A stretch of 64,000 bases of DNA from a virus, in IMG/VR virus record IMGVR_UViG_3300035689_000004, positions 28,547 through 92,546 of that record; one strand, written 5' to 3'. Under the pieces are notes generated by a model that was given only the letters and a program-made list of their open reading frames with translations, did no database searches and was not told where the DNA came from. How positions within the stretch are numbered: position 1 is the first letter of the stretch; every line of letters starts with the position of its first letter. This document shows positions 24,632-54,722 of this stretch, one piece after another. The translations under genes were made by a program, and so were the position numbers.

Positions 24632-25067
24632 TAGCGCCTTGGACCTGTCGAGCGATCGCTTGTACATCGGCGATACCTTCACTCTTAGCTTTAGCTTATC
24701 GGTGGAGAGCATGGAGGCCAGCTTTCGCCCCAACCTAAGCCAGGTCAACCTTCGCATGATCGGCAAGCGTAACCCAGGCGACCCGGACGAAAAAGCATTA
24801 TTTGATAGCGCCCGGGCGACTAATCCCTATTGCACGATCGCCACCGATCCACCGGTGGGCACCACCTTGAGCGGACGCATCACCATCAACGGCGCGGCAA
24901 CTGCCAAGCTAAAAACCTTCAAGCCCCAGCCAGAACTAGCTAGCTCCACAACCCAGCAAGCGGTGCTGTACTTTGCCCTGACCGCCCTCTACCAAGGTGA
25001 GAGTCGCCGTAAGGTATTGGCGACCGGTGAAATTACCCTACGCCGCGATCGCATCGAGGACCCTTGA
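24612..25067 (+). CDS. BppU-like Ig-fold structural protein
   Basis: LYIGDTFTLSF...GRITI...LYF...VLATGEITL pattern. Confidence 0.45.
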   Translation: MLLIPTDSALDLSSDRLYIGDTFTLSFSLSVESMEASFRPNLSQVNLRMIGKRNPGDPDEKALFDSARATNPYCTIATDPPVGTTLSGRITINGAATAKLKTFKPQPELASSTTQQAVLYFALTALYQGESRRKVLATGEITLRRDRIEDP

Positions 25068-25789
25068 TCTATTACCGTTTCTATGGATGCTTGTACGAGC
25101 ACCGGGGAGATCGCCTGTGCAAGGTAGCGGTCGGCACGATGCAGACCCGTAATGGCATCCAGTACCAGCTAAACCAAAACCATCGCTGGCAACGGGTCAA
25201 GGATTTTGCTGTCCATGAGGGCGATGAGGTAGGGCGTAACGTAGCGGCATGGAAGGCAGGCAAGGTGATTGGCGGAGCGGTCGCTAACCACGCGATCGCC
25301 ATGGGTGCTGACCCGATGGCGGCTCAGTTAATTTCAGAAACCGTGGTGCAGGCGGGTACGGCAACGGCACTATGGGCCGCCCAGCAAGCGCGTAAGGGCA
25401 CCCTTACCGCCGAAGGGTTAGCGGCTTACTTTATCCAACAATCAGCGGCGGCAGCCCTGGGCAAGATGGCCCACCACGAGGCAGAGCATTGGTTGCATAC
25501 CTACAACGCCCAGGCGATCGCCCAGCAGGTAGGGCCAATCTTGGCGGGCAAGGGGGCGGGGCTAGGAACAGTTGTGACGACCGCTAAGACTAAAGCCCAT
25601 ACCGCGTTGGTAGACTGGGTGGTTAGCCGCAGCAAGCATGATCTAGCGATGCTGGGCAAGGTGTTTGGCCATGACCTAGCCAAGGCGGCTGACCCGCAGG
25701 CGATCGCATTGTTGTGGCAATTGCACCAAGCAGGTATTGCCATGGCCGCTATGCAGTTGAGGTATGCCCATGATGAACATCAGCCCTGA
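25064..25789 (+). CDS. Putative internal head (ejected) protein with Ala/Gly-rich hydrophobic helices
   Basis: N-terminal YRFYGCLY tag, LCKV, GTMQTRNGIQYQLNQNHRWQR module, LAKA near C-terminus. Confidence 0.55.
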   Translation: MIYYRFYGCLYEHRGDRLCKVAVGTMQTRNGIQYQLNQNHRWQRVKDFAVHEGDEVGRNVAAWKAGKVIGGAVANHAIAMGADPMAAQLISETVVQAGTATALWAAQQARKGTLTAEGLAAYFIQQSAAAALGKMAHHEAEHWLHTYNAQAIAQQVGPILAGKGAGLGTVVTTAKTKAHTALVDWVVSRSKHDLAMLGKVFGHDLAKAADPQAIALLWQLHQAGIAMAAMQLRYAHDEHQP

Positions 25790-25919
25790 ACGCGCCGAAC
25801 TATTGAAGCTAAAGGAAATGAGCGATGAGGAACGGCTTAGCTACCTGCTAGCCCGCCACGCGCTTATCCCCCTTGGCAGCCCACTGCCGCCTATCCATCA
25901 AGTGCTATGCGAACCCTAA
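25770..25919 (+). CDS. 49-aa hypothetical protein (not in track)
   Basis: GAGG RBS; fills the gap between two genes, overlapping both. Confidence 0.4.
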   Translation: MMNISPERAELLKLKEMSDEERLSYLLARHALIPLGSPLPPIHQVLCEP

Positions 25920-28900
25920 CGCCAAAGTCAAAGCCCACGCCATTGCGCCCCAAGGGTGTCTTTGAACTGGAAATCCAGCCCGGCGATCGCCTGTACTTTG
26001 TCGGCAATGACTGTGAATTGTACCGGGGCGAACAATGCCTAGGGCGCTACGGCTACCACTGGGAGGATGACCTAGCCAAAGCGGTACAACGCACCCAGCT
26101 AGCTCTGGTGGAGGGCGAAGAGAAGCCGGTTAAGGGTCCTAATGTCACCAGCATGAAGCCGGAGGCCAAGGCACCCAAGGCACCGAAGGCACCGCCTAAG
26201 CCCGAGGAACAACCGCAGACCGGCGAGCGGTGGATCACCCTCCACCCCAACAAGGAAAACCCGGACTCCTACGTCAGGGTGAAGATCCGGCAGCACCCGG
26301 ACGGCACCGCCAGTGTGATTGCAGGCGCTAAAGGCAAGCTGAACCAATTGCGCCTGACCAAGCTACGCAGCCCGGAAGAATGGAAGGAACGCGCCGCAGA
26401 ACGCAAACAGAAACGACAGGAGAAGGAAGCAAAACGTCGGGCGGAGTTAAGCGAAGGCGATCGCCAAGCGGAGGACGACGAAACCACCCAAGCCCGGGAG
26501 TACCACCGGGGCGAACGGCACCGTAACGCCAAGGCTACCCTAGACGCCTACCAAGAGGCAGGGCTAGACCACGGGCTAACGCCAGACCACCTAGCCGCCC
26601 TTGATACCCCCGCTGGTGCTGACACCGACCCGGAGGAAGCCAAGCAAGTCGAAGCCCTAGCCAGAGAAGCGGTGCAAAAGGCAGCCGCCATCCAAAAAGC
26701 TTATGAACAACGCCTTGTCCAGGACCATGACGCCCGGGCCGCCGCTAAGCTAGGTGATGAATCCCTAGAGGGGCTAGGCAACCCCCTGCAGCAGGATATT
26801 GACCACACCGCCTATGGCGCCGACGGTGACGCCATTTCTAACCTCATCCAACTGCCCAATGGGCAATGGCTGGTTACCGCTGACGATAAGGCAGATGCTA
26901 CCTTTGACACCTGGCAGGAGGCGGCTAAGTATCACCTGGGTAATGTCAACGAGTACGACGGCACCGCCGGCGATCGCAGCCAGCCCGACGACTTTTATAA
27001 CCCCAAGCTATGGGTGGCCAACCCAGATGGCGTTGATTTTTCTCCCCAACTAGCTGGGCAGATGGCAGCCCTGGCCCTGCAGCGCAAAGAGATTGATCGC
27101 TCTGATAAGGCAGCGGGTAAGGCTATCAAAAAGAAAATGCCATGGAAGCGAGAACAGGGGTTTGACATTGGCGGGGTTAGTGGCATTGACGACCAAGCCG
27201 CGATCGCGCAACTGGACCAGGATGCCAAAACCATCGAGGATGCCATCACCCACGGCAAGCTGCTGGATATGGCGGGGCTGTTGGACCCGCAAGCGATGGC
27301 CAAACACCTGCAGACCGGTGGCATCGCCCAGTTGGGGGAAATTGCCTCTGACGTGCTCAAAGTTGCCCAGGTTGATCCGGCAATCATCGCCCAGATGGGC
27401 CACGATGAAGCGGCCAAGCTGATTGCCTACCAGATCCGTCAGGCGGTGGGGGATAGGGAGTATCAGGCGATCGCGGCAGCCCAGGCGGCCCACCATGGCC
27501 AATGGTCCACCGAGTACGCTAACCAAGTGATTGCCGAAAACCAACCCCGCCTGGACGCCCTGCGCGACATCCACCGCCGTATGCAGGAGATCGAAGCGGC
27601 CAAGGATGGTGACTATACCGCCAACCAACTCATTGAACTAGATACCCTCTCCTACCAGTCGGAGACATTGCAAGCGTCATTGCAGCAGTCCATCGGCACC
27701 GCCCTGGGGCAATTGCAGGCTAGTGCGGCGATGACCCTAGCGTTAGAGTCCAAACCCCGTAGCCTACGCTTTGCCGTCAAGGGTAGCCATGGCGAGGTGG
27801 CCGACGTGCCCGGGCTATTGTCTACCGATGGCAGCCCATCAATCTGGAGCAGCTACGGACTAACCGCTGAAGACTTTAGCCTGGAGGATGGCCCGGATGG
27901 GCAGTTGGTATCTATCCAGCCCAGCGGCATGGAAAAGCTTGCCAGCGCCACCTATAACCCGGAGGACCGGGACGCCTACGAGGAGGCGATCGCCATCAAG
28001 CGCGGTGCCTACGATGAGGACGGGTTCACCCCCGCTGGATTTGCCTATCGGCCTGAGTCCACCTTTACCGATGTGCGGGCGGAAGCCCAGCAGTTTGATA
28101 CCACGTTTAACTACCAGCCGGAGATGGATGATGCTGAGGTGCTGCAGGCGGTTAAAGCTTATCTGGGCGCCCGGGTAGCCAATGGCGAAGATCCAGCAAG
28201 TGTCAGAAATGACCTGTTCTCCCATCAGCTCTATTTCAACCTAGGGTTGCTTGAACACGCAGACCGCATCAAGGGGCTTTTGCTTAAGTTTGAAAAAGAA
28301 AAGTATGGCGATAAGGTCTATCCAGGCGCCAAACAAATCCGCAACGACTACCAGGAAATTGCAAACGAAGAGGCCGCCCGACTTAGGGGCACCCAGGCGG
28401 TAGAGTCACCTGAAGTACTGCACAGCCAAAACCTGGACGCTGATAGCGCCAAGGAGGCCGCCCACCGCACCCTGGCCGCCATGCCCATGGCGAGGGCTGC
28501 CCTCAAGCCATTGGACCAGCTATCCTCCAAAGAACGTAAGTACCTGCGCGACTACGCGATCGCGGAGGTGATGAACGAAACCCTAGAAGCACCGGCGCGA
28601 TCGACACAGCCCGCCGCCCAGGAGGAAGCGCCTGAGATGGGGGCATTGTTCGACCTATCTGCCTTCGGTTCCCCTGAAGAAGAGTCCAACGACCCGGACG
28701 ATCGCCCCATCAGCCTATTTGAGGACGAGAACGACGATCGCCCATTTGAATCCCTTACCCAGTGGCAAAAGTTTTGCCGCATCGTTGGCGGTGAGCATAA
28801 AGCCTATGAAGCACTCCAGGACCGCATTAAGGGTAATTTCTACAGTCGTTTTGCTGGCGCCTATTCATCATTGCAGGGCAAGCCACTAAAGACTGGACTG

Positions 28901-30955: not shown

Positions 30956-30996
30956 CAGAGCATATATACTAAAGGGGTCGTGTTAGGGATACCCCG

Positions 30997-31134: not shown

Positions 31135-31151
31135 TTTAACGTTAGGTTTTG

Positions 31152-31182
31152 GCAGACCCCCGACGATCGTCGGGGGTTTTGC
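31152..31182 (+). terminator. Intrinsic terminator
   Basis: ACCCCCGACGATCGTCGGGGGT palindrome followed by a T-rich tail. Confidence 0.7.
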
Positions 31183-31192
31183 TTTGGGTGGC

Positions 31193-31522: not shown

Positions 31523-31633
31523 CAATTCAACTTTAGGGGTTACTTATCCATAGGCACCTTTGGCATTTCTCCGTAGTAAAAACGCTATAGACGTGCTAAA
31601 AATACACTTGTGTTTTATTTTTGCTACACGCCC

Positions 31634-32746
31634 ATGCCTGGCATTCGCACCCTATACCCCCGTGGCAGTAAAGAAGACGGTTTAGGCGTATTCCTAGCCA
31701 AGATGGGCAGACACAAGCTTCTCACCCCTGCCCAAGAGATAGAGCTAGGGCGACAGGTGCAGGAGGGGCTATGGGCCGCGGCAACGGTCCTGGACGATCG
31801 CGATCGCCGTCAGCCACTACAGGAAGATTTCGAGCGCCAGCACCGTAGCGAGCACGGTGAATTACCAACTCAGGTGGAAATTGACGCTTACTTTGACGAG
31901 GCACGGCAGCGGTTGATTGATACCTACCGCCAGGGCCACCCGGAGGCGACAGAGGCGGAGATGCGCCGACACTTTGAACGGGTAGCCCGGCAGGGCAAGA
32001 AAGCTTGCGACCAGATGGTAATCCGCAACCTGCGCCTAGTAGTGAGTGTGGCCCACAAATATTCCAAGCACGGGCTAGAGCTAGGCGACTTGATCCAGGA
32101 GGGCGTTGTTGGCCTAGTGCGAGGGGTAGAAAAATTTGACCCGGCGAAGGGTTATAAATTTTCGACCTATGCCTACTGGTGGATTCGTCAGGCGATCACC
32201 CGGGCCATCAGCAACAAAGCCAAGTCGATCCGCCTACCGATCCATGTTGTGGACGTACTCAACAAGGTGCGCCGCTATGGCCATGTTTTTCGGGCTCAGC
32301 ACGGACGCTACCCAAGCGATCGCGAAGTGGCCGAGCATTTCTCCTCCCGCAATGGCGTTTCTGCCGATGAATGGCTACGACGCTTGCAACGGTTCAAGGC
32401 GATGAATATCGCGCCGACCAGCCTGGACCACGTGGTAGATAACGGCGATCGCGCTAAAAGCACAATCCACGACCTTGTAGGGGGTATTGATGATAGCTCT
32501 ATCAGTTTGTTTGGAGATCAGGTTATCGAGGAATTGGGCGCCGCTGTGGTGGGCTTGCCGACCAGGGAGCGGCAGGTGGTGGAACTAAAGTACGGGCTAC
32601 TCAGCGGTACGCCTAAATCCCTCAGCGAAGTGGCTAGGGAGATGGATGCACCCCTGGCGACGGTACGAACGATCCACGTCAGGGCATTACGGCGATTGTC
32701 TAGGGAGCGGCGGGGCTTGCGATCGCTGCTCGAAGGACTAGATTGA
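31634..32746 (+). CDS. Phage-encoded RpoD-family (group 1/2-like) sigma-70 factor
   Basis: [11 protein letters not shown] (1.2), [44 protein letters not shown] (region 2), [12 protein letters not shown] (region 4); start uncertain (31610 or 31634). Confidence 0.92.
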
Positions 32747-32787
32747 ACCCCGATACAATAGGGGGTAAATTACCCCTCTCTTACCCC

Positions 32788-35700
32788 ATGGCCATCAATA
32801 CCCTGCGCCCGCTGCGCCCCCGGCGGGCTATTTTATTGCGCAAAGACGCCCAGTTTGACTTGTTTGGCGGACAGGCAGAAGTAAAGCCGACAGCGGCGGC
32901 CAAGCGCCGGGAGCGAATTGCAGCAGGCTGGGGGGCTAAACCTAAAACCCAGCTAGGGCTATTTGGGCAGGATGACGATGTACCTGCCACCAAAGGCAAG
33001 GTAAAACCTAAGGCGCCTAAGGCACCCGTCGCGCCCAAGGTGCCAGAGGTAAAAGCGCCAGAGGTAAAAGCACCTGCTACACCTAAGGCGCCGTCTATGG
33101 CAGCAAAGGGACCCAAGGAGGGCGACACTCGCATTAACCGGGCAGGCAATCAGGAAGTATTGCGGGCAGGACGATGGCGGCTAGCCAGCAACCCTAAGGT
33201 AGTGGCTAAGGATAAGGGTAGTGCCGCGATCGTCCCGGTGGTTCAGGAGATTAAGGAGGAGAAGCCGGTAGAGAAACCAGCGGCAGCACCGGCGAAGGTA
33301 GAAGAGGTTAAGCCTGAACCCGTTGAGGTGCAGCAAGAGGTGAAGCCCGCCGAGCCAACTCCCGCGATCGCCGAGGAGAAACCTAGTCAGCAAGGATTGC
33401 CCCGGGCAACCATCCACCATGAGCGGCTTAATCGTTTCAAAAATCTTGCCAATAACGCTAGTGCGCTTCCCCCGGGTTCTAATAAAGAATCCATGAGAGC
33501 CGCTTTCCGGAAACTTTCTGGGGCGGTAAAAGATGAAGACAAAGTAGTACAAAGATGGCTGCGCGACTGGGAGAAGGAAGGGCTATCGCCTGATGAGGCG
33601 ATGCAAAGAGCTTATCGGTATGGTCAAGGGTTAGATCCCGTTCAGTCAGCGGAAGCACCAGCAACACCCACCACGCCGGAGCAACCTGCCGCTGAGCCAA
33701 CCCCGGCGATCGCGGTTGATGCTGACTTTGCTTCCACCAAGCAACAGAAGCAGCGCATCAAGATTAACCAGGATGTAGAGGCTCTGCTTAGCCAGAAGCC
33801 GGACGGACCTTATACCAAGGATGAATTAATCCTGCTTGCCAAGTATTCTGGCAAGGGCGGCATCACTGAAGATGACGGCAGCCTAAGCGAGTACTACACC
33901 CGTCCTGACGTTGCCAAGCACCTGACCGATATTCTCTACCAGCATGGATTTAAGGGCGGTGCCGTCCTAGAACCTAGCTGCGGTAATGGCGTATTTTTGC
34001 ATCAGTTCAAAGACGATCCCAACGTGTTGCCGGTAGGGGTGGAGCTAAGTGAAACCAGCGGCAAGGCGGCGGCAGCCCTGAACCCACACGCCGAAGTGAC
34101 AGCCGGGGCATCCTTTGAACGGTTCTGCCTAGACAATCCAGACTTTAGCCCTGATGCTGTAATCGGCAATGTTCCCTTTGGCACCCGCACCGTAGGCGGC
34201 GACCTAGAGGCATTTCGCAAGGTAGGGAAAGGATGGAAGGACAATGGCGACTTTTTCGTTCATGAAAGCCTATCCAGGCTGAAGCCAAGCGGCATCATGG
34301 CATTGATCGTGCCCCATGGCATCACCACCGGCAGCACCCATCAACGCCTGCGGGAGGAGTTGATGAAGCAAGGGCGGGTGATTGGCGTTCATCGTCTCCC
34401 TAATACCGCCTTTGCCCATACCAACACCAAGACTATTACCGATGTGCTGGTAATTCAAAAACATCCTGACGTCATCCTTAACGCGATCGCTGACGGGCAG
34501 AGTGATGTTATCGCCAAAACCCGAGACGATGCCTTTATCCATGGCAAATACTTTGAGGCTCACCCCGAACATGTCCTAGGCGAATACCAGGAGACCAGTA
34601 ACCAGTTTGGCGGTAAGTCATTTACCATCAACGGCAAGATCGAAGACGCGCTTGCCAGCGCCCAAGGGTTTACGCCAGACGTGAGCTATGACGGGCTACA
34701 AACAGATGGGGCGGAGGAGCGATCGCCGCAAAAGGGCGACACCCGTTATATCAATGGCAGACTGTACCGGCTAGAGGGTAACCCAGCCCGTTGGCACCTT
34801 GTCGAGCAATCTGAACCGGTTGCCGAGGAAGTGGACGCCTCCGGCTATGGTGCTGAGTCGATGGCAGATGCAGAGGCGCAGCTATTGGATGCGGGGCGAC
34901 GGGTCCTAATCCACCCAGATAACTTACAGGCATACCGAAACCTTGCCCACCAACACCTACCCAAGGCGGAGGCGATGGCGTTTGATGCCGCGATCGCGGC
35001 GAGTAATGCAGCAGGTTCTAGCATCGACAGGGAAAAGCTTGCCCACGCCATGCTGCTAGCAGACCACATTGAAAGGCTGCAGAAGGGCGATGCGGACCCG
35101 ATGCAGGTAGAGAAAGCGCTTAACATGCTGCAGGGCTACAGAGAGGCGCACGGCAACCCCTCGACCGACAAAACATTGATTGGGCTGTCTAGCCAATTCC
35201 CTGCGCTGTTGCGGCTACAGGGATGTTTTGACGAGAACGACAAGATCAGTGATTACTTCACCGACCATGACAAAGTTACCGCCCAGGTAAAGCGAACCCA
35301 TAGTGAAGCGGGCGCCGCTATGGCAGAAGCCTATCGCGCCGCCGGGGGCGAAGCGGTTGACCTGGACATGATCCGAGCTCAGTTAGATACAACGATGACT
35401 GATGCGGACCTAGAGGCAACCCTGGTTGCTGATCCAACGGTTGGCTATATCAATGGCGCCTACATGCCGATGGATCGGCTGCTGACCGGCAATGGCTTCA
35501 ACCTTGTTGATGCCATGCTGATGGAGGCAGAAGGGTTGCCAGAGGGTGCCGCCGCCCGGCGCAAACTTGAGGAGCAGATCGGCATCATTCGCTCCAGGCT
35601 AGAGCCAAGGCAGATGGAGGACATTACTACTCCATTCTGGGCCGTTGGCAGCTGGATACCTGTAGACGCGATTAATGCCTTTTTGACAGACCGCGACTAT

Positions 35701-38700
35701 GGTTCTTACTCCCAAGGGCAACGCGAACCTGTCAAAATCTACCGCGGGGCTGATGGTAAATGGCGGGTATCAGGCTATGCCTACGGCGTAGTAGAAGATG
35801 TCATCACCTCAATGAACCGGGGCAGGATTTCCCATGGCAAAAATACCCAAGAGGCAAAGGAAGCCGTCCAGGCGTTAGAGAAAGACTTTGCCCAGTGGAT
35901 TGCTGGCTCTGACTATCGCGTTCAGGTAGAGGAAGCCTATAACCTTGCCTTTAACTCTGACCTGCCCGAGCAGTTTAGTGGTGACCCGCTTGACATTAGC
36001 CTGTTTGAGCAATACGACGCAGACGAGGCGACCGGCAAGCGCAAAAAACGCCTGCACGACTACCAAACATCGACGATCCGGCAAATGGCCGCCCAGGGGA
36101 GAGGCATCATTGCCCTAGGGGTTGGACTTGGCAAGACAGCGACCAGTATCGGGCTAGCCTTGCACCTAAAAGAATCTGGCAGAGCCAAAAAGCCTACCTT
36201 TGTTGTACCCAAATCCGTCCTATCGAACTGGGTGAGGGAGGTAGGCTTCTGGGCACCTCAGGCGAATGTAATGATCCTGGGCCAGACCCAACGCTACTGG
36301 GCAGACGACACGCCCATGTGGGAGGTGCCAGGCTTTAAGATCGACGTTGCCAAGGGCGTACCAAAGCGCGATAAGGACGGCAACTATATTCTGTACCGTC
36401 AGATCGGGGAGCGTGACGTTACGACAAAAGGTAAAGACGGCAAAACCATAACCAAAAAGGAAAAGGTTTATGCCGATCAACCTATTTTGATGAGCGAAAA
36501 GGAATACCTCAAGGCAGGTAACCTTGTCTTTTCAGATGACGATGCCGCAACAAAACGGCTCAAACTACGCCAGTTGTCTCAAAACAACTATGACATGGTG
36601 CTGATGACGGAGCCTACCTTCCAGGCGCTTAGCTTGCACCCTGACAAAGAAACTGAGTACCTAGAGGACATCACCCAAGACGCGATCGGTCACCTGTCAG
36701 ACTCCAGCAAAGACACCCATAAGATGCTCGAAAAGATCGAGAAACGGCGGGTTAGCTTGGCCGCCAGGACTGATGACAATATCGAAGAGACGATCACCTT
36801 TGAGGAGCTAGGCATTGACGCGCTATTCCATGACGAGGCGCACCACCTTAAAAACCTGTACGGATCAAAGCGCAACCAAAGCTTAGCGTTTATGAGTCAG
36901 GCAGAGTCCAACCGATCGCTAGACTTTTACTACAAAGCCCGGTACATCCGGGAGAAAAACAACAACCAGAATGTTTACTTGCTTACCGCTACCCCTACCA
37001 CCAACAACCCGCTAGAGGCGTTTAACATGCTGCAACATGTTTGCCCGGAGGAGCTTGAAAAACGAGGCATCCAAAATATTGATGACTTCCTCGGCATGTT
37101 TGGCGATATGCAATCAGTTGAGGCGCCTGGCGTTGATGGCGAGATCAAGGAGAAATACGGGCTAGTTGGGTTCAAGAACCTTAAAGACCTGCGCCACCTG
37201 TTTAACAAGTATTGCCGGATGCAATCGGCTAAAGACGTTGGGCTTCCTATCCCTGAAGAAGCCACCCAGCATCACTATGTCAGTATGAGCCCGGCGCAAA
37301 AAGAACTTTACAACGATCTAAGGCGCCGCGCCCGTAATGCCGGTTCTGACAAAGGACCTCAGGACCACCTATTCTCAGTCATCAGCGACATGGATAAGGC
37401 GGTGATTGACCTTGCCTACTACAACGAAAGCGGTAGCGGCAAGTCTCCCCAGGTAGACATTCCAGAGGGTGAAAAGCCGCCTAAGGTTCAAGCTTGTATT
37501 GAGCAGGTGATGAGTAGCCGCAATGCCAACCAGGGCAAGCAGATCGTATTCTGTGACTCCGTGCAAATGCACCAACGCATCAAGCAACAGTTGGTCGAAG
37601 CTGGTTATCCCGAAGACCAGATCGCGATCGTCAATGCGGATGTTGCTAAAAATAGCCCAGACCGTCAGAAAATCAGCAATGCTTACAACGAAGGACGGAT
37701 TACCCTTGTCATTGGCAACACCGCCACCATGGGGGAAGGGATGAACTTTCAAATTGGCACCACTGACATTCACCACCTCACTACCCCATGGACCCCTGCT
37801 GCAATTGAACAGCGTAACGGACGGGGTGTTCGTCAAGGTAACGTACTAGACAATGTGGGCTGCCATTACTACCACGCCAAGGGCAGCTTTGACCAATATC
37901 GGCAACAAACCCTTGAGCGCAAGCGCGGTTGGATTGATGACCTATGGAAAGGGTCTGAGGATACCGCCTCCAACCAAGATACCGGGCTTCTCAATGCTGA
38001 CGAGATGGACATCATGCTGGCAGACGACCCAGAGGCGGCCCGGGCGGCGGCAGAGGCAAATCAAGAGCTTGCCCTTGACCGCCATCGCAAGAAGATGACC
38101 ACCGCCGCCCTGCGTGATTTTGCCCAGTTGCAGAACATGAGGCTGGTTGTCTCCAAGATGACCCCGGAGGCGCGCTCTAGGGAGCGTGGACGAGCGCTAG
38201 AGGCGCGACTAAGGCAGGTGACAGAAGCACTATCCAGGAATGAATACTTCCCCCACAAGCACCTGCTAGACGGCACTACGCCCGCTTATATCGGCTCTGA
38301 TGGCACCGTCTTGCAGGAGGGCGATCATGTTCGTCAGGATGATGGCAGCATTTATCAGATCACCAAGATAGACAATGCCAAGAGCAAATTTATCACCCAG
38401 ATGGTCAGCGGTCCTGACTACAGTCCATCCCGGCTATCGGAGAAGGGTGAAACCTTTGACTTTAAGCACGTCAATAGCACCAAGTCTCGCTCAGCGATCG
38501 CGCCAACGTCCTTTAACGAAAGGGTCCACGCGGACCGGGTGATTGATAGCCTATCTGCCTATGGTGCCTTTGAAACGATCGCTAGCCTATCGCCGGACGC
38601 GATCAACGAAAACCGGGGGCGAATCATGGACAAGCTTAAGAACGACTTGCCCTCCGCCTCCATGCCCTACCTGGACCCGGAGACCGATAAGCTCGTTCTA

Positions 38701-41752: not shown

Positions 41753-41980
41753 CTAGGCACTTAGTGTGGCCCAGGCGGTTTCCTCCACCACGAAAGTTTC
41801 GGTGTAACCCTCAGGGGCGTCACACTTGGCAAACCCCTTTTTAATAAGTTCAGCATCGGTGTCGCTGTCAGTCGGGTAGACCTCAACAGACTGGCCGTTT
41901 AGGTGGCCCCAGTACTGGTTGTCGTCATCCTTGGTAATGCTGTCAAAAACGTAGTAGTTGATTTCAGTAGCGGTAGTCAT
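41753..41980 (-). CDS. Small acidic accessory protein with own promoter
   Basis: GGAGG RBS before ATG 41980 (MTTATEIN); hairpin 41706-41736. Confidence 0.7.
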   Translation of the reverse strand: MTTATEINYYVFDSITKDDDNQYWGHLNGQSVEVYPTDSDTDAELIKKGFAKCDAPEGYTETFVVEETAWATLSA

Positions 41981-42017
41981 CGGTTGGTCCTCCGTAAGTG
42001 GTTTGTTCCATGCCTTC

Positions 42018-42057
42018 AATATACCCCCCCTGTATCGAACTGTCAACACTTTTCGAT
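42018..42057 (-). promoter_or_regulatory. Sigma-70 promoter with overlapping operator (family A)
   Basis: TTGACA (42046-41), 17 bp, TATATT; ATCGAA-N12-TTCGAT. Confidence 0.72.
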
Positions 42058-42236
42058 AAAATAGCTATAACCTAAGCGCTGTCTGTCTTTTGCCCCATCT
42101 AGCCAATATTTCCCCATGAAAACCTTTACCCTTGCAGGAGATCGCTACGTCGCGTGAAAAAGCTCTAGGCGTCTAGCGCTTATTTGCAACAAGCAACCCC
42201 AGGTTATACTTAGGCTGTCCCCCTTCTTTAAGCACC

Positions 42237-42677
42237 ATGGGTACACAACAGGACCTCTACAAAATGCTGGCGGAAGGCGGCACCCGCCTTAGGGATACCC
42301 GACGCATCCACCAGCAGGCGATCGCTAACATCGCCACCCTACAGCAGCAAGCCCTATCCGAGCTATCGCGGCTACGCGATCGCATCGAGTCAGCCGGTAT
42401 CGGCAGTGACCCGGAGGCGGAGGCGCAATACCTGAAATTGCTTGCCACCAAGCGCAAGCTGGAGCAAGTACGCCAGATGAACCCGGTGCTTGCCTCCATG
42501 CCACCTGTGGCACTCCAAAAGGCATTGGACTATGGCTTGCTGTTATTGCAGGTCTACAACGGCGGACGGCTTTCTAAGGCAGCGGGCGGCGACATAGAGG
42601 CCCATATCCTACGGCTAAAGCGCTACCGCCACCCGGCGGCGGTGGCTCAAATCAATGCACTGGAGCAATTGCTGTGA
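42237..42677 (+). CDS. Coiled-coil protein, putative head-associated
   Basis: LQKA and LSKA sites. Confidence 0.55.
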   Translation: MGTQQDLYKMLAEGGTRLRDTRRIHQQAIANIATLQQQALSELSRLRDRIESAGIGSDPEAEAQYLKLLATKRKLEQVRQMNPVLASMPPVALQKALDYGLLLLQVYNGGRLSKAAGGDIEAHILRLKRYRHPAAVAQINALEQLL

Positions 42678-43540
42678 ACCACCCGATCCTTGACGATGGG
42701 CTATGCACGCCAGACGGGCGATCGCTAGCCTGGGCGGACAATGCTCACCTACTCCACTGGCCCGGTGAACTGGTCTATGGCGAACTATTGCCGGTGGCGA
42801 CCGATCAGCCCGAGCAATTCGAGGACCGCAAGAAAGAGTGGGACTATGACAGCGATCGCGGGCGTCCCCGCCGGCGGGAGAAGCGATCGCCGGTGGATGT
42901 GCCGGACCAACCGCTGAACCGACTGAGGCGGCTACTGAGCAACGGCAGGCCGGAGGCGGTTGAACCGGGGCCACGCTTTGCACGACCGGACCAGGCATCC
43001 GCCTTTGCCATGCAGCAGGGCCACCTATCCCGTAATACGCTCCTAGACGAGCTAGAATGCCGTGTGCTGCTAGGGGATTGGCCGATGGGTGGTGAGACAC
43101 CCCTAACCTTCTATGCAGGCGCTCAGACGGTCCTAGACGCCCTGGCGACCGACTTCTTTAATGAACCGATTATCCCGCCGGTGCTATTGAATGCGATCGG
43201 GCCTAGGCGGGCGGGGGAGGTGTTAGCGGGCTATATGGGTAGCCCCCATGCCCAGGAGATCGTTAGACGTTGGCGGGATGGCATCTGGCGCACCATTGAC
43301 CAACGCTTAGACGAAAAGTTGCAGCTGTGCCAGGAGTCCATGTTTAGTTGGGCGGCGGCGGGGCAAAAGCCTATCCTATCCCCCGAGGGGGAGCCGGACG
43401 CTATCCTTACCCTGGCTAGTGCAGCAACGGCAACGGTCGCGGTTTATCACCTGGCTAACCTGGGGCAGGCGTTGAAGGATTTTCAGAAGAGCGGCAGGGA
43501 TGCGATCGCGGGGGTGTTGGATGGGCTGGCAGGCGATTAA
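42674..43540 (+). CDS. Hypothetical protein
   Basis: GTGA overlap. Confidence 0.55.
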   Translation: MNHPILDDGLCTPDGRSLAWADNAHLLHWPGELVYGELLPVATDQPEQFEDRKKEWDYDSDRGRPRRREKRSPVDVPDQPLNRLRRLLSNGRPEAVEPGPRFARPDQASAFAMQQGHLSRNTLLDELECRVLLGDWPMGGETPLTFYAGAQTVLDALATDFFNEPIIPPVLLNAIGPRRAGEVLAGYMGSPHAQEIVRRWRDGIWRTIDQRLDEKLQLCQESMFSWAAAGQKPILSPEGEPDAILTLASAATATVAVYHLANLGQALKDFQKSGRDAIAGVLDGLAGD

Positions 43541-43628: not shown

Positions 43629-45137
43629 ATGGGCGGGCGCATGGTTGCTACAAGTTTTGAAATACGTCCTGAAACAAGATTCGACGAACGGGTTATTAAA
43701 CCATCAGTGATTGGTGACCTTGAAAATTTTTCAGCGTCGATTCTGGAGCGGCAATCACAGGAGAAGGAGCTATTCAAGCCTGGGCTTCATGTGTGTTCAT
43801 CTTGCGCTGCTGTTGTGTTGGCAAAGATGGGGGATTCGGAGGCTCGGAAATTTAGGGATCGATCTGTGTTGGAGCAGTGTGACAGGGAGGGGTGCAGCGA
43901 TCGGGTCGAAGAATGGCAAGCGATCTTGCACAAAAATCGCCTAATCAGCGACGGCAAGGTTCACCCTAAAATTGCCACCCGGTTTGTTGCTTGCTCAGAC
44001 AAACACTTGAAAGCGCCTGATGGTCGTCGGGCAAGCTACCGCCACCTGCCCGGTCACGGTGAAAACTGCAGGGCAGACACCGAACACGAAAGAATAACTG
44101 ATCGATTGAGATCCGTTTTCACCAACGAGCTAAAAGCGCTTTACCCTGGCTGTGATATCACCGACCAGCTAAACCTAAAAGCCTCAGACGACCTCAACCA
44201 GCGACCGGATATTAAATTCACCATCAAGGGGGATACCCCGTCAGGGCCGGTCGACTTTGCGATCGCCGTCGAAGTGCAGCAGTCTAAAATCGCTTTTGAT
44301 GCCTGGGAAAATCGCAACCAAGGGCTATTGACTGTTGCTACCCCTGTAGTGTGGGTCTTCAAGCAAAGCAGGTCTGGGGGCTCATTCAAGCCTATTCTGA
44401 CTTCTATGGTGGAGGGCGACTTGCCTGCCTGGGTTTACCACATTGAAGGTGAGCCCGGCAGTGATGATGGCAACTTGATATTGACGCCCGCAAAAGATGG
44501 CTACCCTAATTTTTGGGGTGGGTTCGATACCCCGAATCAGCCCAAAGAAAATCCAGTCTGCCAAAACGCCTACCATCGGAGACGCAAAGAGATCGCCGAA
44601 ACCTATCGGGTTGGAATATCGGGCAGGTCTGAAGTGACTTTGATCGGTGGACTTGCCCAGCTTAAAAGCATTTTGCCAGGGCTAGCTACGCCCCAATCTG
44701 TTCAGGTAGATATGTCGGTGCAAGTTGACCTTAGCGCAGTCTCAGAAGAGCAAGAAAAATTACCAGAGTTAATGTGGTGGAATTTTGATGTGGGATCTTA
44801 TGTTGCACTTCAGAAAGGGCTTTATGGAGTTCTTGTTCCTAAGCCGCGAGAGTGGAACCCCAACCATCCGAAGCCTAGCCACGATCCTCCTCTTTATGTG
44901 CAATACAAAGGTAGATGCACGTTTCACCCAGCCCTTTCCGGTAAATCAAAATCAGAATTGCCTCCAGGCTTTTATCGGCTGAAGGACGGCAGGGTTGTTG
45001 AAGTCTTCCCAGAAAGCCTTGATGGCTACCCGGAGTTTTGGAGTGGGTTCAATGCAACCGCGGCATATCAAGACGGAGTTGCAGTGCATCGGCTCAGCCA
45101 GCTCACATTTTTTGAGAGCGGCATGCTTCGGCCTTAA
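43629..45137 (+). CDS. CoiA-like PD-(D/E)XK nuclease domain protein
   Basis: QRPDI...IAVEVQQS, preceded by Cys/His clusters and E.EH. Confidence 0.55.
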   Translation: MGGRMVATSFEIRPETRFDERVIKPSVIGDLENFSASILERQSQEKELFKPGLHVCSSCAAVVLAKMGDSEARKFRDRSVLEQCDREGCSDRVEEWQAILHKNRLISDGKVHPKIATRFVACSDKHLKAPDGRRASYRHLPGHGENCRADTEHERITDRLRSVFTNELKALYPGCDITDQLNLKASDDLNQRPDIKFTIKGDTPSGPVDFAIAVEVQQSKIAFDAWENRNQGLLTVATPVVWVFKQSRSGGSFKPILTSMVEGDLPAWVYHIEGEPGSDDGNLILTPAKDGYPNFWGGFDTPNQPKENPVCQNAYHRRRKEIAETYRVGISGRSEVTLIGGLAQLKSILPGLATPQSVQVDMSVQVDLSAVSEEQEKLPELMWWNFDVGSYVALQKGLYGVLVPKPREWNPNHPKPSHDPPLYVQYKGRCTFHPALSGKSKSELPPGFYRLKDGRVVEVFPESLDGYPEFWSGFNATAAYQDGVAVHRLSQLTFFESGMLRP

Positions 45138-48901: not shown

Positions 48902-48909
48902 GAGTAGCC

Positions 48910-49334: not shown

Positions 49335-49873
49335 GGAGACTGTTATTGCTAGATCACACCGCCCTGGTGCAACACCGCAACGGACCCGGCATCTACATCA
49401 ACAACCGGGACGATATGGTGCTGGTTCCAGGTATCCTAGGCGCCCTGGAGCCTTACATTGATAAGGGCTACAACGTCGCCATCTGTAGCAACCAGGGCGG
49501 CGTTGAGAAAGGCCACCTAGCCTTCGGCGCCTGCCAAAGCCTATTCGGTGAAATGTTCAAGCTGTCCAACTATTGGGTTCAGGCCATTTGGTTTTGCCCC
49601 CTAGCCCGGGGCAGCACCGGCAGTTATGCCATCCAGATGACGATGCCCTACGAGCCTAAGGAATACAGCAAGTGTCAGAAGTATGCCAGCACTGGCTACC
49701 GGATGCCCAAGGCGGGCATGATTTTAGCCGCCATGAACTGGTTCAGGGTGACACCTGAGCAGACCACCATGGTGGGCTTACAGCCAAATGCTTACGATGC
49801 CGCCGCTGATGCGGGCGTCAGAAAGTTTGTCCACAGTTCCTATTTCATTGAAAAAGCGGGAGTATTGCAATGA
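49331..49873 (+). CDS. HAD-IIIA (GmhB/PNKP-type) phosphatase-like protein, catalytic motifs degenerate
   Basis: SNQGGV, RMPKAGM, TMVG; motif I LDHTAL. Confidence 0.65.
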   Translation: MRRLLLLDHTALVQHRNGPGIYINNRDDMVLVPGILGALEPYIDKGYNVAICSNQGGVEKGHLAFGACQSLFGEMFKLSNYWVQAIWFCPLARGSTGSYAIQMTMPYEPKEYSKCQKYASTGYRMPKAGMILAAMNWFRVTPEQTTMVGLQPNAYDAAADAGVRKFVHSSYFIEKAGVLQ

Positions 49874-50994
49874 AGTTTACAGTTGATGCAGAAGTATTGG
49901 CAGAGGCGATCGCGCTGTGCGATCGCGCTATCCCTAAGCGCCCTAGCCGCCCTATCCTGGGCCACATGCTAATGCAGCTAGACAATGGCAGCCTTACCCT
50001 AAAAGGGTTTGACGAAGCGCTAGGGATTAGCTTTTCGTTGCCAGTAGACATGGAGCGATCCGGTGATTGCTGTGTGTCGCCTACCTACCTAAAACCCATC
50101 TTGGAGCGCCTATCAGGGCAGGTGGCTTTAGATCTGCAGCACCCTGTCCTGGTGCTAACCACCCTAGGCGGTGAGTACCGGATTAATACCCTCCTGGCTG
50201 AGGACTACCCCAACTTGCCTGAGGTGGACGGCACCCCGGTGGAGTTGTCCATATCCTCAGAAGAACTACGGGCCGCGATCGCGGCTACGGTGTTCTGTGC
50301 CAGCACCGACGAAAGCAAACAGGTGCTGACCGGCGTCCATTTCTCTGTCACCCCCGGCGAAGAGGGGGAGGCAGGGGTAATGGAATTAGCGGCCACCGAT
50401 GGCCATCGAATGATCGCCTATCCGCTACCCGGCGGTAGTGTTGTCATCCCCGAGGACTATCGCCCCGTCACCCTACCCGGGAAGAGCCTGCGGGAATTGT
50501 TAACCGTCCTGAAGGGCTACGAAGGCACCGTCAAGCTAACCTTTGACGATGTGTCTGTACATGCCCTGTGTGGCGACACCGAGCTTTACAGCCGTGTCAT
50601 CGAGGGGCAATACCCCAACTACCGGCAGCTATTCCCCAAGGTGTTCTCCAAGGTGGCGACCTGCGATCGCAAACCGTTTCTGTTAGCCCTCGATCGCACC
50701 CTGGTGGTGGCCGGTGAAAACCGAGACATCGTTAAGCTGGAGTTTGACACCACTGGGCTGGTGATGAGTGCAGAGGCAAAAGAGGCGGCCAAAGCTCAGG
50801 AGCAGGTTGCCGGTGCAGCCTGCAACGACGCTATCACCCTGGCGGGCAATGGCAAGTACATCAAGGAGGCGCTAACCAACGCGATCGTTGGCGAAACCTT
50901 CACCATGGAGATGAATAAGCCGGAAAGCCCAGTGGTTTTTACAGATGGGTCCCCGGCGACCTATTTGATGATGCCCATTCAGATTAGGAGTTAG
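49870..50994 (+). CDS. dnaN: DNA polymerase III beta sliding clamp
   Basis: RPILG, STDESKQVLTGV, AATDGHR, GQYPNYRQL, YLMMPIQIRS; 374 aa. Confidence 0.95.
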   Translation: MKFTVDAEVLAEAIALCDRAIPKRPSRPILGHMLMQLDNGSLTLKGFDEALGISFSLPVDMERSGDCCVSPTYLKPILERLSGQVALDLQHPVLVLTTLGGEYRINTLLAEDYPNLPEVDGTPVELSISSEELRAAIAATVFCASTDESKQVLTGVHFSVTPGEEGEAGVMELAATDGHRMIAYPLPGGSVVIPEDYRPVTLPGKSLRELLTVLKGYEGTVKLTFDDVSVHALCGDTELYSRVIEGQYPNYRQLFPKVFSKVATCDRKPFLLALDRTLVVAGENRDIVKLEFDTTGLVMSAEAKEAAKAQEQVAGAACNDAITLAGNGKYIKEALTNAIVGETFTMEMNKPESPVVFTDGSPATYLMMPIQIRS

Positions 50995-50996
50995 TT

Positions 50997-51176
50997 ATGA
51001 ACCTGAAGCCCGGCTATGCGATCGCCTATCGCCCATCCACGGAGGAACCCTGGCAACAAGCGTCTGTCTTTGCGGTCGATGGCGATAAGGTGATGGTTAA
51101 ACTGCCACCACGCGCCCACGCGTCTAGGTTTGTCACGGTGGACATTGACAGTGGTTTGATAGGGCCACCGTTCTGA
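50997..51176 (+). CDS. 59-aa small beta protein (not in track)
   Basis: AGGAG RBS, TGATG coupling; MNLKPGYAIAYRPSTEEPWQQASVFAVDGDKVMVKL. Confidence 0.6.
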   Translation: MNLKPGYAIAYRPSTEEPWQQASVFAVDGDKVMVKLPPRAHASRFVTVDIDSGLIGPPF

Positions 51177-51916
51177 TGCAGGAGTTTTACATAGGCTGGC
51201 ATCAGCCCGTCAACGGCCTGTCTGGCTGCGGGGATTTTCCCCGGTGCATGGTGTCAGTCAACCGACTTCTAAGGCGTCGCTCTCCCTTCCCGGTTCAATC
51301 CTGGATATTGGATAGCGGCGCTTTTACTCGCATCGCTAGCGGGCAAGGCCATTTGCCAGCAGAAGACTATGCCAAAGAAATCCGGCGATGGGCAAAAAAC
51401 GGTAACCTTGTGGCAGCTGTAGCGCAGGACTATATGTGTGAGCCATTTATCCTTGGCAAGACCGGGCTAACCATTGAAGACCACCAACGGCTAACCATAG
51501 AAAACTACGATCGCCTGCTTGCCCTAGATACCGGCGTCTATATTATGCCAGTGCTGCAAGGCTACTCCCCCGCTGACTACGTTAGGCACCTGCACGATTA
51601 CGGCGATCGCTTACGTCCTGGACAATGGGTAGGGGTGGGTTCTGTCTGCAAGCGAAACAGCAACCCTGGGGCAATTGAAGCCGTCTTGGTGGCGATTAAG
51701 ACAGCTCGCCCCGATCTGAGGTTGCACGGGTTTGGCGTTAAGAAGACCGCCCTAGAATCTTCAATTGTGTGGGACTTACTTTACTCAGCGGATAGCCAAG
51801 CCCATAGCTTTGCAGCACGGATGGAGAACCGAAACGCCAATTGCCCAAAGGTTGCGCTTAATTACGCCAAAGGCATCGGCAGCCCCTTGCAGGCATCCAT
51901 ATTTTCAGCGTTCTAA
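51176..51916 (+). CDS. DpdA-like (TGT-fold) deazaguanine DNA transglycosylase
   Basis: ILDSGAF, QDYMCEP, MPVLQG, GVGSVC, LHGFG, SADS motifs. Confidence 0.72.
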   Translation: MQEFYIGWHQPVNGLSGCGDFPRCMVSVNRLLRRRSPFPVQSWILDSGAFTRIASGQGHLPAEDYAKEIRRWAKNGNLVAAVAQDYMCEPFILGKTGLTIEDHQRLTIENYDRLLALDTGVYIMPVLQGYSPADYVRHLHDYGDRLRPGQWVGVGSVCKRNSNPGAIEAVLVAIKTARPDLRLHGFGVKKTALESSIVWDLLYSADSQAHSFAARMENRNANCPKVALNYAKGIGSPLQASIFSAF

Positions 51917-51992
51917 CCATTTCTCGAACCTACGCTAAGATAGGCATAGCGTAGGCATAATTTATTTCCTATCCCTAGCTCCTATCTCCTCC

Positions 51993-54722
51993 ATGGTTCT
52001 TCCGGTGGAGGCTATCCTGTCCAAGTCAGCCGATATGGTTGTGGGCGGGGTAGCCTCCAATTTTTTTAGAGATCTTGACGGCGATGCCATTTGCCCGGAC
52101 GCGATTCAACGCGCTATCCCTGGCTTCATGGCAACCCGTGGCCCGGACGGGCTAAAGGGTGGCCCCATTCGCCTGCACCATGGCTTCTGGGAGCGATTTC
52201 TAAAGCAGTCTATCTCTGCCCTTAATATTCCCTACGACCAACAAGTGGGGCTACTAGCCGCGATCGCGCTCCCCCTGGGCCGGGTGACTGAGATGAGCGT
52301 CGATAGCGATGGCACTACGCGCTGGCGGGGTGTCCTGTCTGGCGCTAACCCCATCGCCCGGGTGGTGTGGAATATGCTCAAAGAGGGCATGGTTCACCTT
52401 GGCGTTAGCGTGGGTGGCAAGATCAACGGTGTACGCCCCGGCAGAGATGCGATCGGGCGGACCTGCAACCTGATTACCGACGTACGGCTGGACGAATTGA
52501 GCATTACTGACAACCCGGCCAACCGGCTAATTGAGTCCGAGACCCCCGACAATGGCGCCTACATTACCGCGCTTGCTAAATCTGTGGGTAATACCATGCT
52601 CGCTCAGAAACAACAGCATTACATCTACCTGAATGGCATCGCCTATACCGCTCACCCTAGCGAAGAGCATGGCATTGTCCTACGCAAGGCAGGACGGCGG
52701 CGAGTGCCCTCCCCGGGCCAGCTAGGCTTATTTGGTGGCCACAATGAGGGCGATACCAAAGTAGAGGACGGTGTTACCTATCGGCTAAATGCCAATAGCC
52801 GCTGGGAACGGATGGATAAACCCAAGGCCAGCGGTAAGCCGTCTGGCGGGAAGATGAAGGCGGAAAAACCTGCGATCGTCCCGGTGGTGGAGGCGGAGAA
52901 GGGAGAGGCTAAGCCTGAGGACGTTGAACCTAGCATTTCAACCTCTGCTGAACCTAAAGCAAGCCGCACTAGCAGAAGCTTTACCGCTGAAACGCTTACG
53001 CCTCAAGATATTCAATTGAGCGACATCCAGGAAGTCGCTGGCGAAGAGTCGCTTCACGGGGAAAAGCAATACTCATTAAGGAATTTATTTGATCCTACCG
53101 CTTCACCGCTTAAGCTGGGATTTTTCCCGTCCGCTAATGCGGCCTTAGCCACTGTTCAGGACGAAATGGAGTTTCCGTATTATGTAGGTGAAATGGAGAT
53201 GGCGGCAGGGGCTCTTGGACGCATTGAGCGACGAGAGGCGGTTGCTGAAATGGTGCTTGGCGCGATTCGGAAACGGGTGGCTGACGGCGAATCGGTGCTA
53301 CTGTCCCAAGGGCGGTACGGCATGAGTTCTCGCAATCCCAAAAGTACCGTCATTGATGCCGACAGCGTCGATCTCCTCAGGGCCAGGAATGGGAATATTG
53401 AGCTGAAGCATGGTCAAAAATGGGTACAACATACGGCGGGTTTTGACCTGCTGGAATTGGCCCAGCGGGTAGGACTTGATCCTGAAGCCCTTGATGCCTT
53501 CATTTCAGGTGACTCCGACCCCGAACCCACCGTTAGCGAAATGCTGGAGCAGCAGCAAGCCGCGATCGCGGATGAGCCTATGCCTGAGGGTGAGGCGATG
53601 GAGGGGGCGGATGATGACTGGGAAAGCAAGCTGCAAGAGCTTCAATCCATTGGCAATCAAGCCAAATTAGATGGACCCGAGGGTGTGAAGGATGACGCGA
53701 CAGAGGCGCCTGGGGTTTCTTACAATCCTGACTTAGTGCAGCAACGAATCAACCAAGGTTATTTTGAAGGCCGGGCTTTCTACTCAAAAGCCGTACAAGC
53801 CATGAAAGCAGCATTGTCAGCAGGTAGATCTGTCAAACTGCATTTTGATGACCAAAGTAGCTATGGCGCCAATCTGGTAGCTGAAATCGACGGGGTTCGG
53901 CACCCTATCACTCGCTCGAAACTAAAGCCAAAAGATATTGCGTTTCTCCTGACGGTCAACAGTCATTCGGCAATGGACGTTTCGGCAGGCGCCTTGGAAC
54001 AATTAGGACTAGGCAGCAAAACTGCCCCAACCGGACGCAAACGATCTTCCGCCTTTACCAAATCCTCCACCCCCTCACTCCCCATGACTATCGATAACTT
54101 CCTCCGCAAAGCCCTGGGCAATCCTGGGCGTGAGTTTGGTTCTGGCGCATGGCGGGATACGGGCATCCCGGCGATGGGTCGCAAGGTTGACGCCAAAAGC
54201 CCGCAGCCGAAGGGTGGCAAAGAGGTACAAATGGATGAATCCGGCAGTGCCCATGCCGGTAAGGGTATCGGTGGCAAGCAACCCAAAGCCCATCGCCCCT
54301 ACTCCTCCGGCGGTATGCCCCCCACCGATGTATTCGGTATCACCATCACCCAGCTGACCCGCAACCTAGCTAAAGCTTGCTACATGGACAAGGACGCCTG
54401 GGGTAGCCCGGAGACGGTTTCTTTCTTGACCGACAGCGCCAGGGCGATCGCGGGCATGACTGACACCCCGACCGACCCGATGGTGAACTTTGTCCGGTTC
54501 TTGCAATACTGCACCCGTTTCGCCCAAGAATTGCCGTTTATGAACGACTACCAGGCGGCGGGGACGGTGAAGGCGATGAATGCCGACCTAACCAAAGCAC
54601 TGGACGAATTCGTAGAGAAGATGCCTGAGGAGCTAAAGGGAAAACCTTTGCGCCCTGCCGGTTCACCCGGCGTTGTGGGCATCGACGTTCAGTTTCCCCA
54701 ACAGTACGTTATTTACTCCTAG
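51993..54722 (+). CDS. Prohead maturation protease (HK97-type) fused to a long multi-module extension
   Basis: GVAS...RDLDGD, LHH, GVSVGG, LDELSITDNPAN. Confidence 0.82.
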   Translation: MVLPVEAILSKSADMVVGGVASNFFRDLDGDAICPDAIQRAIPGFMATRGPDGLKGGPIRLHHGFWERFLKQSISALNIPYDQQVGLLAAIALPLGRVTEMSVDSDGTTRWRGVLSGANPIARVVWNMLKEGMVHLGVSVGGKINGVRPGRDAIGRTCNLITDVRLDELSITDNPANRLIESETPDNGAYITALAKSVGNTMLAQKQQHYIYLNGIAYTAHPSEEHGIVLRKAGRRRVPSPGQLGLFGGHNEGDTKVEDGVTYRLNANSRWERMDKPKASGKPSGGKMKAEKPAIVPVVEAEKGEAKPEDVEPSISTSAEPKASRTSRSFTAETLTPQDIQLSDIQEVAGEESLHGEKQYSLRNLFDPTASPLKLGFFPSANAALATVQDEMEFPYYVGEMEMAAGALGRIERREAVAEMVLGAIRKRVADGESVLLSQGRYGMSSRNPKSTVIDADSVDLLRARNGNIELKHGQKWVQHTAGFDLLELAQRVGLDPEALDAFISGDSDPEPTVSEMLEQQQAAIADEPMPEGEAMEGADDDWESKLQELQSIGNQAKLDGPEGVKDDATEAPGVSYNPDLVQQRINQGYFEGRAFYSKAVQAMKAALSAGRSVKLHFDDQSSYGANLVAEIDGVRHPITRSKLKPKDIAFLLTVNSHSAMDVSAGALEQLGLGSKTAPTGRKRSSAFTKSSTPSLPMTIDNFLRKALGNPGREFGSGAWRDTGIPAMGRKVDAKSPQPKGGKEVQMDESGSAHAGKGIGGKQPKAHRPYSSGGMPPTDVFGITITQLTRNLAKACYMDKDAWGSPETVSFLTDSARAIAGMTDTPTDPMVNFVRFLQYCTRFAQELPFMNDYQAAGTVKAMNADLTKALDEFVEKMPEELKGKPLRPAGSPGVVGIDVQFPQQYVIYS
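52686..52901 (+). repeat. Dispersed coding repeat, copy 2
   Basis: Matches 40805-41002. Confidence 0.92.

Follow-up and report, generated by a model that had tools for sequence, protein, structure and literature searches.

Why should a phage set the same short peptide on several otherwise unrelated proteins? The question is raised by a window of 64,000 nucleotides (by which we mean the whole stretch of DNA analysed), positions 28547-92546 of a single virus contig of 92,546 bp, IMG/VR record IMGVR_UViG_3300035689_000004. Judging by the tail sheath and baseplate wedge proteins that it encodes, the phage is a myovirus. Some of its predicted proteins, among them a polyprotein that begins with a putative prohead protease, carry a tag of about 24 residues bounded by sites that this protease might cut, and the original prediction saw in it an excisable capsid-targeting signal. 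We put at about 0.5 the probability that the tag is a hairpin pro-piece of virion cargo, which the prohead protease excises and which likely holds the cargo. Within this reading, analogy with phage HK97 makes it well supported that the tag is built to be cut out by the head protease. The proteins that bear it are probably head cargo, with the tag as their removable pro-piece, and capsid targeting by the tag, again argued by analogy, is plausible.

The consensus of the tag is [hydrophobic]-[YF]-T-L-x-G-x-x-Y-x(5-9)-(G)-I-V-L-[RQC]-K-A, and the motif is real, far above chance. The strict pattern [YF]x[LF]xGxxY matches 7 times in the 29,052 residues of the phage's called proteins, against an average of 0.56 in residue shuffles, none of which reached 7 (0/2000). 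A relaxed pattern followed by an L-x-[KR]-[AVSTG] end, run over the six-frame translation, matches only in real plus-strand open reading frames. The five sites first proposed are all in place (25073, 40144, 40751, 41501 and 52623), and the [YF] start then ascribed to the pattern holds for most copies, the exception being that of the protease, which begins with I and fits the relaxed pattern only. Beyond the window, two further copies begin the paralogous proteins P0005 and P0006 (L001:7267-8349 and L001:16504-17643).

These paralogs are 95% identical in their first 66 residues and 16-48% identical beyond, and over the same 66 codons they differ by 14 synonymous and 3 replacement changes; between P0003 and the protease copy, the 54 conserved codons hold 21 synonymous differences and 2 replacements. 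Since synonymous differences far exceed replacements between copies, the peptide is under purifying selection. Recent gene conversion as the source of the identity was ruled out, the synonymous sites having diverged. No description of the tag was found in Pfam-A, in PHROGs or in the literature reached by search. Pfam gave no match for the tag module or for P0005/P0006 at E up to 10, and the only PHROGs match on the tag proteins was a weak one, of P0001 to phrog_29576.

How far does the tag reach beyond this phage? A profile scan had been suggested together with the original prediction, and it yielded about 20 further families of tagged proteins. The profile (A5), which covers 26 positions of the tag alone, was searched against 1.84 billion representative proteins and gave 28 matches at E <= 1e-3, of which about that number are true and six, repeat proteins with Ig-like strands, were judged false. 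True matches were validated by features outside the profile, namely a downstream PGQ[LM]xLF, a downstream GDTK..NG.TY.LN...RW or an upstream L-x-K-[SA]. All of them come from metagenomes, and the newly found tagged proteins are known at the protein level (P0054 and P0051 were not found in IMG/VR). Their bodies are mutually unrelated and include ferritin/Dps-like, DnaJ, DUF3560 and SNF2 helicase proteins, helical proteins of unknown function and the protease polyprotein, so that the tag is, as first proposed, a discrete and portable module on non-homologous proteins. The count of four unrelated carriers within the phage needs a correction: the bodies are indeed non-homologous, but P0003 and the protease polyprotein share a whole module of about 70 residues made of the tag, a QLGLF motif and the RW motif described below.

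The position of the tag follows a simple rule. In 12 proteins it starts at residue 2-5, and where it is not N-terminal it lies 4-13 residues after an L-x-K-[SAT] site in every case (12/12); as the background is about 1.5 such sites per 1000 residues, this upstream site is not due to chance. All tags end in L-x-K-A, and K-A is invariant in alignments A5 and A7. The bounding by cleavage-like sites or a terminus noticed in the phage therefore extends to the wider family. At least 7 different proteins, 105-1077 residues long, close with a recurrent C-terminal cassette in which L-x-K-[SA] is followed by the tag, LRKAG and a tail of 44 residues containing CWEGY..VPNCVP. P0003 and P0046 have one tag at each end. 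Could the freed peptides themselves be the product, as small internal head peptides that stay with the DNA or are injected, like internal peptides II and VII of T4? Framing on both sides would indeed release a defined peptide of 25-40 residues, whose sequence is under strong purifying selection, but N-terminal tags need no two-sided framing and the tag is neither strongly acidic nor basic, and we consider this reading improbable.

The meaning of the frame comes from the head genes (Table 1; arrows mark predicted cuts). The capsid protein starts MTNAALTRRALLK↓SLGISDGGGAE, the counterpart in HK97 gp5 being FNK↓SLGSDADS. HK97 gp5 is cut at K103↓S104, and strings such as LTKS and LIKS occur in the delta domain and in the protease of HK97. 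Eleven relatives, with identities as low as 63%, retain the capsid start LLK↓[SA]L..GGGAE. Sites of the form [LM]-x-K-[SA] are enriched in the scaffold-like protein (5 observed, 0.24 expected), the protease polyprotein (6 and 1.0), the post-portal protein P0013 (4 and 0.24) and P0003 (3 and 0.45). Those of the scaffold are kept in homologs at 31-57% identity, with 4-6 sites in all relatives. The protease homologs, too, share two sites without exception: L-x-K-[STA] near the N-terminus, and AL-x-K, which is conserved behind the protease domain. From the HK97-like capsid start, the conserved and enriched sites and the protease fold, we infer that L-x-K↓[SA] is the cut site of the phage's prohead protease; because the tag is framed by the same motif, that protease would also release the tag. 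The tag as a docking site required for cutting was ruled out, since capsid, scaffold and portal have sites without a tag. We also find it hard to credit that a modifying enzyme recognises the tag as its leader, as in ribosomally synthesised and post-translationally modified peptides: scans with Pfam and PHROGs gave no candidate maturase among the neighbours scanned, and no enzyme other than the prohead protease is linked to the tag by motif, while this protease evidently cuts untagged sites of capsid and scaffold too.

Both fold and annotation bear on the protease itself. Foldseek places its model closest to T4 gp21 (probability 0.99) and herpesvirus proteases, PHROGs gives a weak match to head maturation protease, and the homolog P0033 is annotated PF04586. 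Sequence searches in Pfam and PDB gave no match, and a profile comparison with HK97 gp4 matched no more than 29 residues at the N-terminus, with a probability of 3%.

Table 1. Tag copies, predicted protease substrates and neighbouring genes in the window
Feature	Position	Strand	Remarks
Portal	16852-18390		
P0001, degenerate N-terminal tag MIYYRFYGCLYEHRGDRLCKVA, then RW motif	25064-25129	+	
Helicase of superfamily 2 (SF2), 1682 residues	25907-30955		
Sigma-70	31610-32746		
DarB-like methyltransferase-helicase, 2493 residues, predicted virion cargo	32743-40224	+	phrog_10089/11801; N6_Mtase, SNF2, Helicase_C
DarB-like protein, C-terminal tag-like end, LKKA-AKRYSLAGVIYELRRTASNAISLVRVHHA	40123-40221	+	pattern fit, after LKKA site
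Ulx-like protein, adjoining the DarB-like gene	40233-40631	+	phrog_1629, E 8e-9
P0003, first tag with both flanking sites, LEKT ... FTLMGVPYIFDPAQGVLCKA	40724-40810	+	E 1.5e-4 to P0005-type tags
P0003, clamp-binding-like QLGLF and RW motifs after first tag, GVTYRLNANSRW	40838-40924	+	
P0003, second tag with both flanking sites, LTKS ... FTLMGVPYIFDPHRAVLRKA	41471-41560	+	opens C-terminal cassette ending CWEGY..VPNCVP
Remnant of tagged gene, 13 codons MKTFTLAGDRYVA, then stop	42116-42157	+	
Beta clamp (DnaN)	49870-50994		
DpdA	51176-51916		
Protease-passenger-scaffold polyprotein, 909 residues	51993-54722	+	
Prohead protease domain (predicted), residues 1-196 of polyprotein	51993-52580	+	
Polyprotein tag with both flanking sites, LAKS ... 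IYLNGIAYTAHPSEEHGIVLRKA	52572-52691	+	E 8e-6 to P0005 tag
Acidic scaffold-like protein	54738-55544	+	five L/M-x-K-[SA] sites
HK97-fold major capsid protein	55573-56562	+	PF05065
Capsid N-terminal propeptide (predicted), 13 residues	55573-55611	+	ending ALLK↓SLGISDGGGAE

What form does the tag take? AlphaFold, run on the tag module with a 17-sequence alignment, predicts three short strands at residues 4-24 with a predicted local distance difference test score (pLDDT) of 70-88, which agrees with the small beta-hairpin first proposed; a disordered stretch over the clamp motif (pLDDT 52) and a second small hairpin at the RW motif (pLDDT 78-83) follow. The predicted template modelling score of 0.30 leaves the packing of the two hairpins into one domain unsupported, and a fold search with the 90-residue tag module found no match at Z >= 2. 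The hairpin might be an uncut interaction or oligomerisation element that acts during infection, perhaps joining the clamp motif at the replisome, with L-x-K-A as a structural feature. In keeping with this, L-R-K sits at the end of the last predicted strand, the phage has its own beta clamp, clamp motifs also occur on non-virion enzymes, and P0005/P0006 stand outside the head module. We nonetheless think it rather improbable, as it leaves unexplained both the L-x-K-[SAT] site upstream of all 12 non-N-terminal tags and the presence of the same motif at the capsid propeptide and across the scaffold.

Two companion motifs travel with the tag. The first, QLGLF, resembles a clamp-binding motif and lies 6-10 residues after the predicted cut on most tagged proteins (40838-40852 and 52719-52733 in the window); the stretch PSPGQLGLFGG of P0003 is also found as the C-terminal clamp-motif region of an Archangium MutS. 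The second, the RW motif G[DE]T[KR]..NG.TY.LN.N.RW.R (40838-40924, 52719-52805 and 25154-25189), matches no Pfam model and is present on every suspected cargo; it recurs 2-4 times inside proteins of 2367 and 3235 residues (L017, L018) of distant phages without the tag. These motifs open another way to read the tag, as a cleaved pro-piece without an address, which keeps the cargo inactive or hides the adjacent clamp motif while the RW motif or the body does the loading. The short distance between most N-terminal tags and PGQLGLF speaks for it, as do the spread of the RW motif over every suspected cargo and the giant polyvalent proteins of tagless phages and the fact that the polyprotein can do without its tag. 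In many cases, though, no clamp motif follows the tag (C-terminal cassettes, P0045, P0057 and P0062), and a C-terminal tag is unable to mask an N-terminal motif, so that we hold this account to be unlikely. Clamp-like strings were also seen at the start of a DNA methyltransferase (M-x-QLALF; L001:5729-6520) and at the end of a CoiA-like nuclease (QLTFF; window 43629-45137).

The individual copies differ in how closely they are related. By BLAST and leave-one-out profiles, only the tags of P0003, the protease, P0005/P0006 and the Dps-type protein are demonstrably homologous, both P0003 copies and the protease copy showing significant similarity to P0005-type tags (E 1e-4 to 8e-6). The N-terminus of P0001 has no significant similarity to these core tags and is missed by leave-one-out and enlarged profiles. 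In its ortholog P0062, whose body is 56% identical (E 1e-76), the corresponding position holds a canonical tag, and an alignment of both N-termini reaches E 2e-5; it is only through this ortholog that the P0001 copy can be read as a degenerate tag. For the C-terminus of the DarB-like protein, the best non-self BLAST match is a P0005-type tag, at E = 0.6. A C-terminal tag exists elsewhere (P0046, 17.7 bits), which makes the position plausible, and we regard this copy as an unproven, weak member at the level of the pattern. At its N-terminus the same protein bears another leader, which ends in ILLRK↓D and precedes clamp-like and RW motifs.

A last copy in the window has lost its protein. In a relative (G002), a protein of 672 residues is made up of the tag, a ferritin/Dps-like domain, the RW motif and two C-terminal repeats (L016:14324-16339), while the phage keeps only the upstream region and first 13 codons of such a gene. 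Positions 41977-42154 and 42178-42700 of the window align to L016 14199-14371 and 16348-16870, from which it follows that the body of this tagged gene, about 2 kb, is missing in the phage. The C-terminal tail of P0003, DPCWEGYEAVGMKKKRGKMVPNCVP (41561-41695), is a Cys motif also seen inside proteins of T4-like cyanophages (S-RIM2, BUCT-ZZ01; L057-L059), whose genes adjoin terminase and virion structural genes; there is no tag beside the motif there.

In the polyprotein, the N-terminal protease domain and the C-terminal 200 residues or so are conserved and the middle is variable; the tag within it is modelled as strands at 211-232 (pLDDT 52-62). Homologs with a protease domain 60-81% identical keep both cut sites, with LQTTVSPSPVDRFLEQVLDDNLSK or almost nothing between them, which indicates that the tag is not needed to load the protease. 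Between the protease and the conserved C-terminal domain, homologs of the polyprotein (P0022-P0025, L048:480-4502) carry other passengers, either a DnaJ domain or a pair of ParB-like domains, with L-x-K sites framing each. The stretch from the tag through QLGLF to the RW motif is 77% identical to that of P0003, and the best reading of this copy is that the polyprotein has captured a cargo gene, of which the tag was the leading part, rather than that the protease bears an address of its own.

How, then, would such a tag work as a pro-piece of virion cargo? It would be borne by cargo proteins in one clade of uncultured myoviruses, whose prohead protease is of the HK97 type, whose acidic scaffold is a separate protein and whose capsid has the HK97 fold, and would hold them in the assembling scaffold core or against the interior of the shell, much as the capsid-targeting sequence (CTS) of T4 does. 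Inside the prohead, the protease would cut at IVLRK↓A and at the upstream L-x-K↓[SAT], freeing the tag as a peptide and leaving the cargo with a new N-terminus that carries the clamp-binding-like QLGLF and the RW motif; two-tag proteins such as P0003 and P0046 could cross-link the scaffold core. The idea of head cargo is supported by the DarB and Ulx homologs of the phage, whose P1 counterparts are loaded into the head. A more ambitious version makes the hairpin a position-independent label, in one or two copies, that loads varied enzymes (methyltransferase-helicase, SNF2 helicase, Dps/ferritin and J-domain proteins) into an HK97-type prohead by co-assembly with the scaffold core and is then excised, the injected proteins docking through a bared N-terminal clamp-binding motif on the host sliding clamp as the DNA enters; this we hold only tentatively, with more doubt than confidence.

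Several observations weigh against the tag as a cargo-holding pro-piece. P0005 and P0006 are encoded in the midst of genes for the tail and baseplate. In distant relatives with the same protease, scaffold and capsid, no tag was found in the readable 10-kb flanks, and in near relatives it is dispensable in the polyprotein. In the related L048, with a protease 60% identical, a tagged gene is inserted amid head-tail genes. The RW motif is commoner than the tag and would stay on the protein once the tag is cut off, so that retention may really depend on this motif. The assignment of the cut site draws on the analogy with HK97. Finally, leave-one-out and enlarged profiles miss the DarB-like C-terminus, scoring it at noise level; with E = 0.6 besides, the original proposal that the tag loads an enzyme of about 2500 residues lacks statistical support.

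The relatives of the phage stand apart from cultured ones. The head genes and tag module found no relatives among 50,697 cultured-phage records by megablast and tblastn, the C-terminal Cys motif being the sole part of P0003 that matched in these records, and the close relatives are uncultured IMG/VR and metagenome contigs. A genome scan with the alignment of the tag-QLGLF-RW module (A2) gave no prophage relatives and returned the Archangium MutS only, via its clamp motif.

Sites of the same kind were seen on three further proteins. The first is a protein of 498 residues encoded after the portal (18381-19877), whose leader ends LQLRK↓SLSVDAGGGAEITVQ and which also has three L-x-K-A sites and an RW motif; after the predicted cut it would mimic the mature capsid N-terminus (SLGISDGGGAEVTLQ), and the G-to-K spacing of its leader is that of the tag. 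The second, the 1682-residue helicase, has an N-terminal leader of about 57 residues, ..DRLYFVGNDCELY..WEDDLAK↓AVQRTQLALVE (25907-26090), which ends in the protein's sole L-x-K-[SA] site, a clamp-like QLALV coming next; the helicase may thus be cargo that uses another leader. The third is the portal, which ends in ..PELEK↓SARRLVIRWN (18343-18387) after a Pro/Gln-rich linker, and from which a C-terminal piece of 10 residues may be clipped off.

If the tag does load proteins, it would be a cargo-loading signal for phages with the HK97 type of protease, folded and working from either end; apart from the protease's own tail, we know of no such signal described for these phages. The rule of removal would then allow injected proteins (anti-restriction enzymes, helicases, Dps-like and J-domain proteins) to be recognised from sequence alone, and the tag would be a candidate means of bringing foreign proteins into capsids. 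Should targeting not hold, the data still define the cutting motif of a protease family and three modules that mark its substrates: the tag, the clamp motif and the RW motif.

As a concept, such a signal has precedents in T4, giant phages and P1. Not described in Pfam, PHROGs or the literature found are the peptide itself, its predicted hairpin fold, its occurrence at both ends of proteins and its combination with an L-x-K protease of the HK97 type. The cargo-loading peptides of encapsulins are likewise short and portable, and load diverse enzymes, notably ferritin-like ones, into an HK97-fold shell; they are not excised, and hairpin formation is not known for them. Among the tagged bodies, one is ferritin/Dps-like, as in encapsulin cargo. 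As predicted from its sequence, the phage shares with HK97 the fold class of the protease, a hydrophobic-x-K↓S site and a mature capsid starting SLG, but it differs in having a separate scaffold and a 909-residue protease polyprotein with a conserved C-terminal domain of about 200 residues. The C-terminal tail of HK97 gp4 is an encapsidation signal, according to a later paper that cites the original work (Duda, Oh and Hendrix 2013, cited in PMC12749128). The tag has no similarity to the gp4 tail, and what they have in common is the notion that a short peptide may carry its protein into the prohead.

In P1, the anti-restriction proteins DarB and Ulx are loaded into the head, and a 30-residue N-terminal signal of DarB suffices to load a reporter, its cleavage not being reported in that work (PMC9024508). 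Our phage resembles P1 in having a DarB-like methyltransferase-helicase with a Ulx-like neighbour, but the candidate tag of its DarB-like protein would be C-terminal and is statistically weak, the N-terminus having the other leader (ILLRK↓D). A further close parallel is that of T4, whose capsid-targeting sequence was reportedly the subject of work by Mullaney and Black in 1996. This CTS, found on the internal proteins IPII and IPIII and on Alt, is removed by the prohead protease gp21 (PMC9958956, PMC7411985). Like it, the tag is a short portable peptide on unrelated proteins, directly before what would be, from the HK97 comparison, the phage's own prohead-protease site. The T4 CTS is about 10-20 residues long, strictly N-terminal, cut at L/I-x-E and carried by injected head proteins, whereas the tag is unrelated to it in sequence, has about 24 residues and a predicted hairpin, lies N-terminally, internally or near the C-terminus, and is framed by L-x-K↓[SA]. 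On sequence grounds, the tag is thus to be classed as an analogue of the T4 CTS and not as a member of its class.

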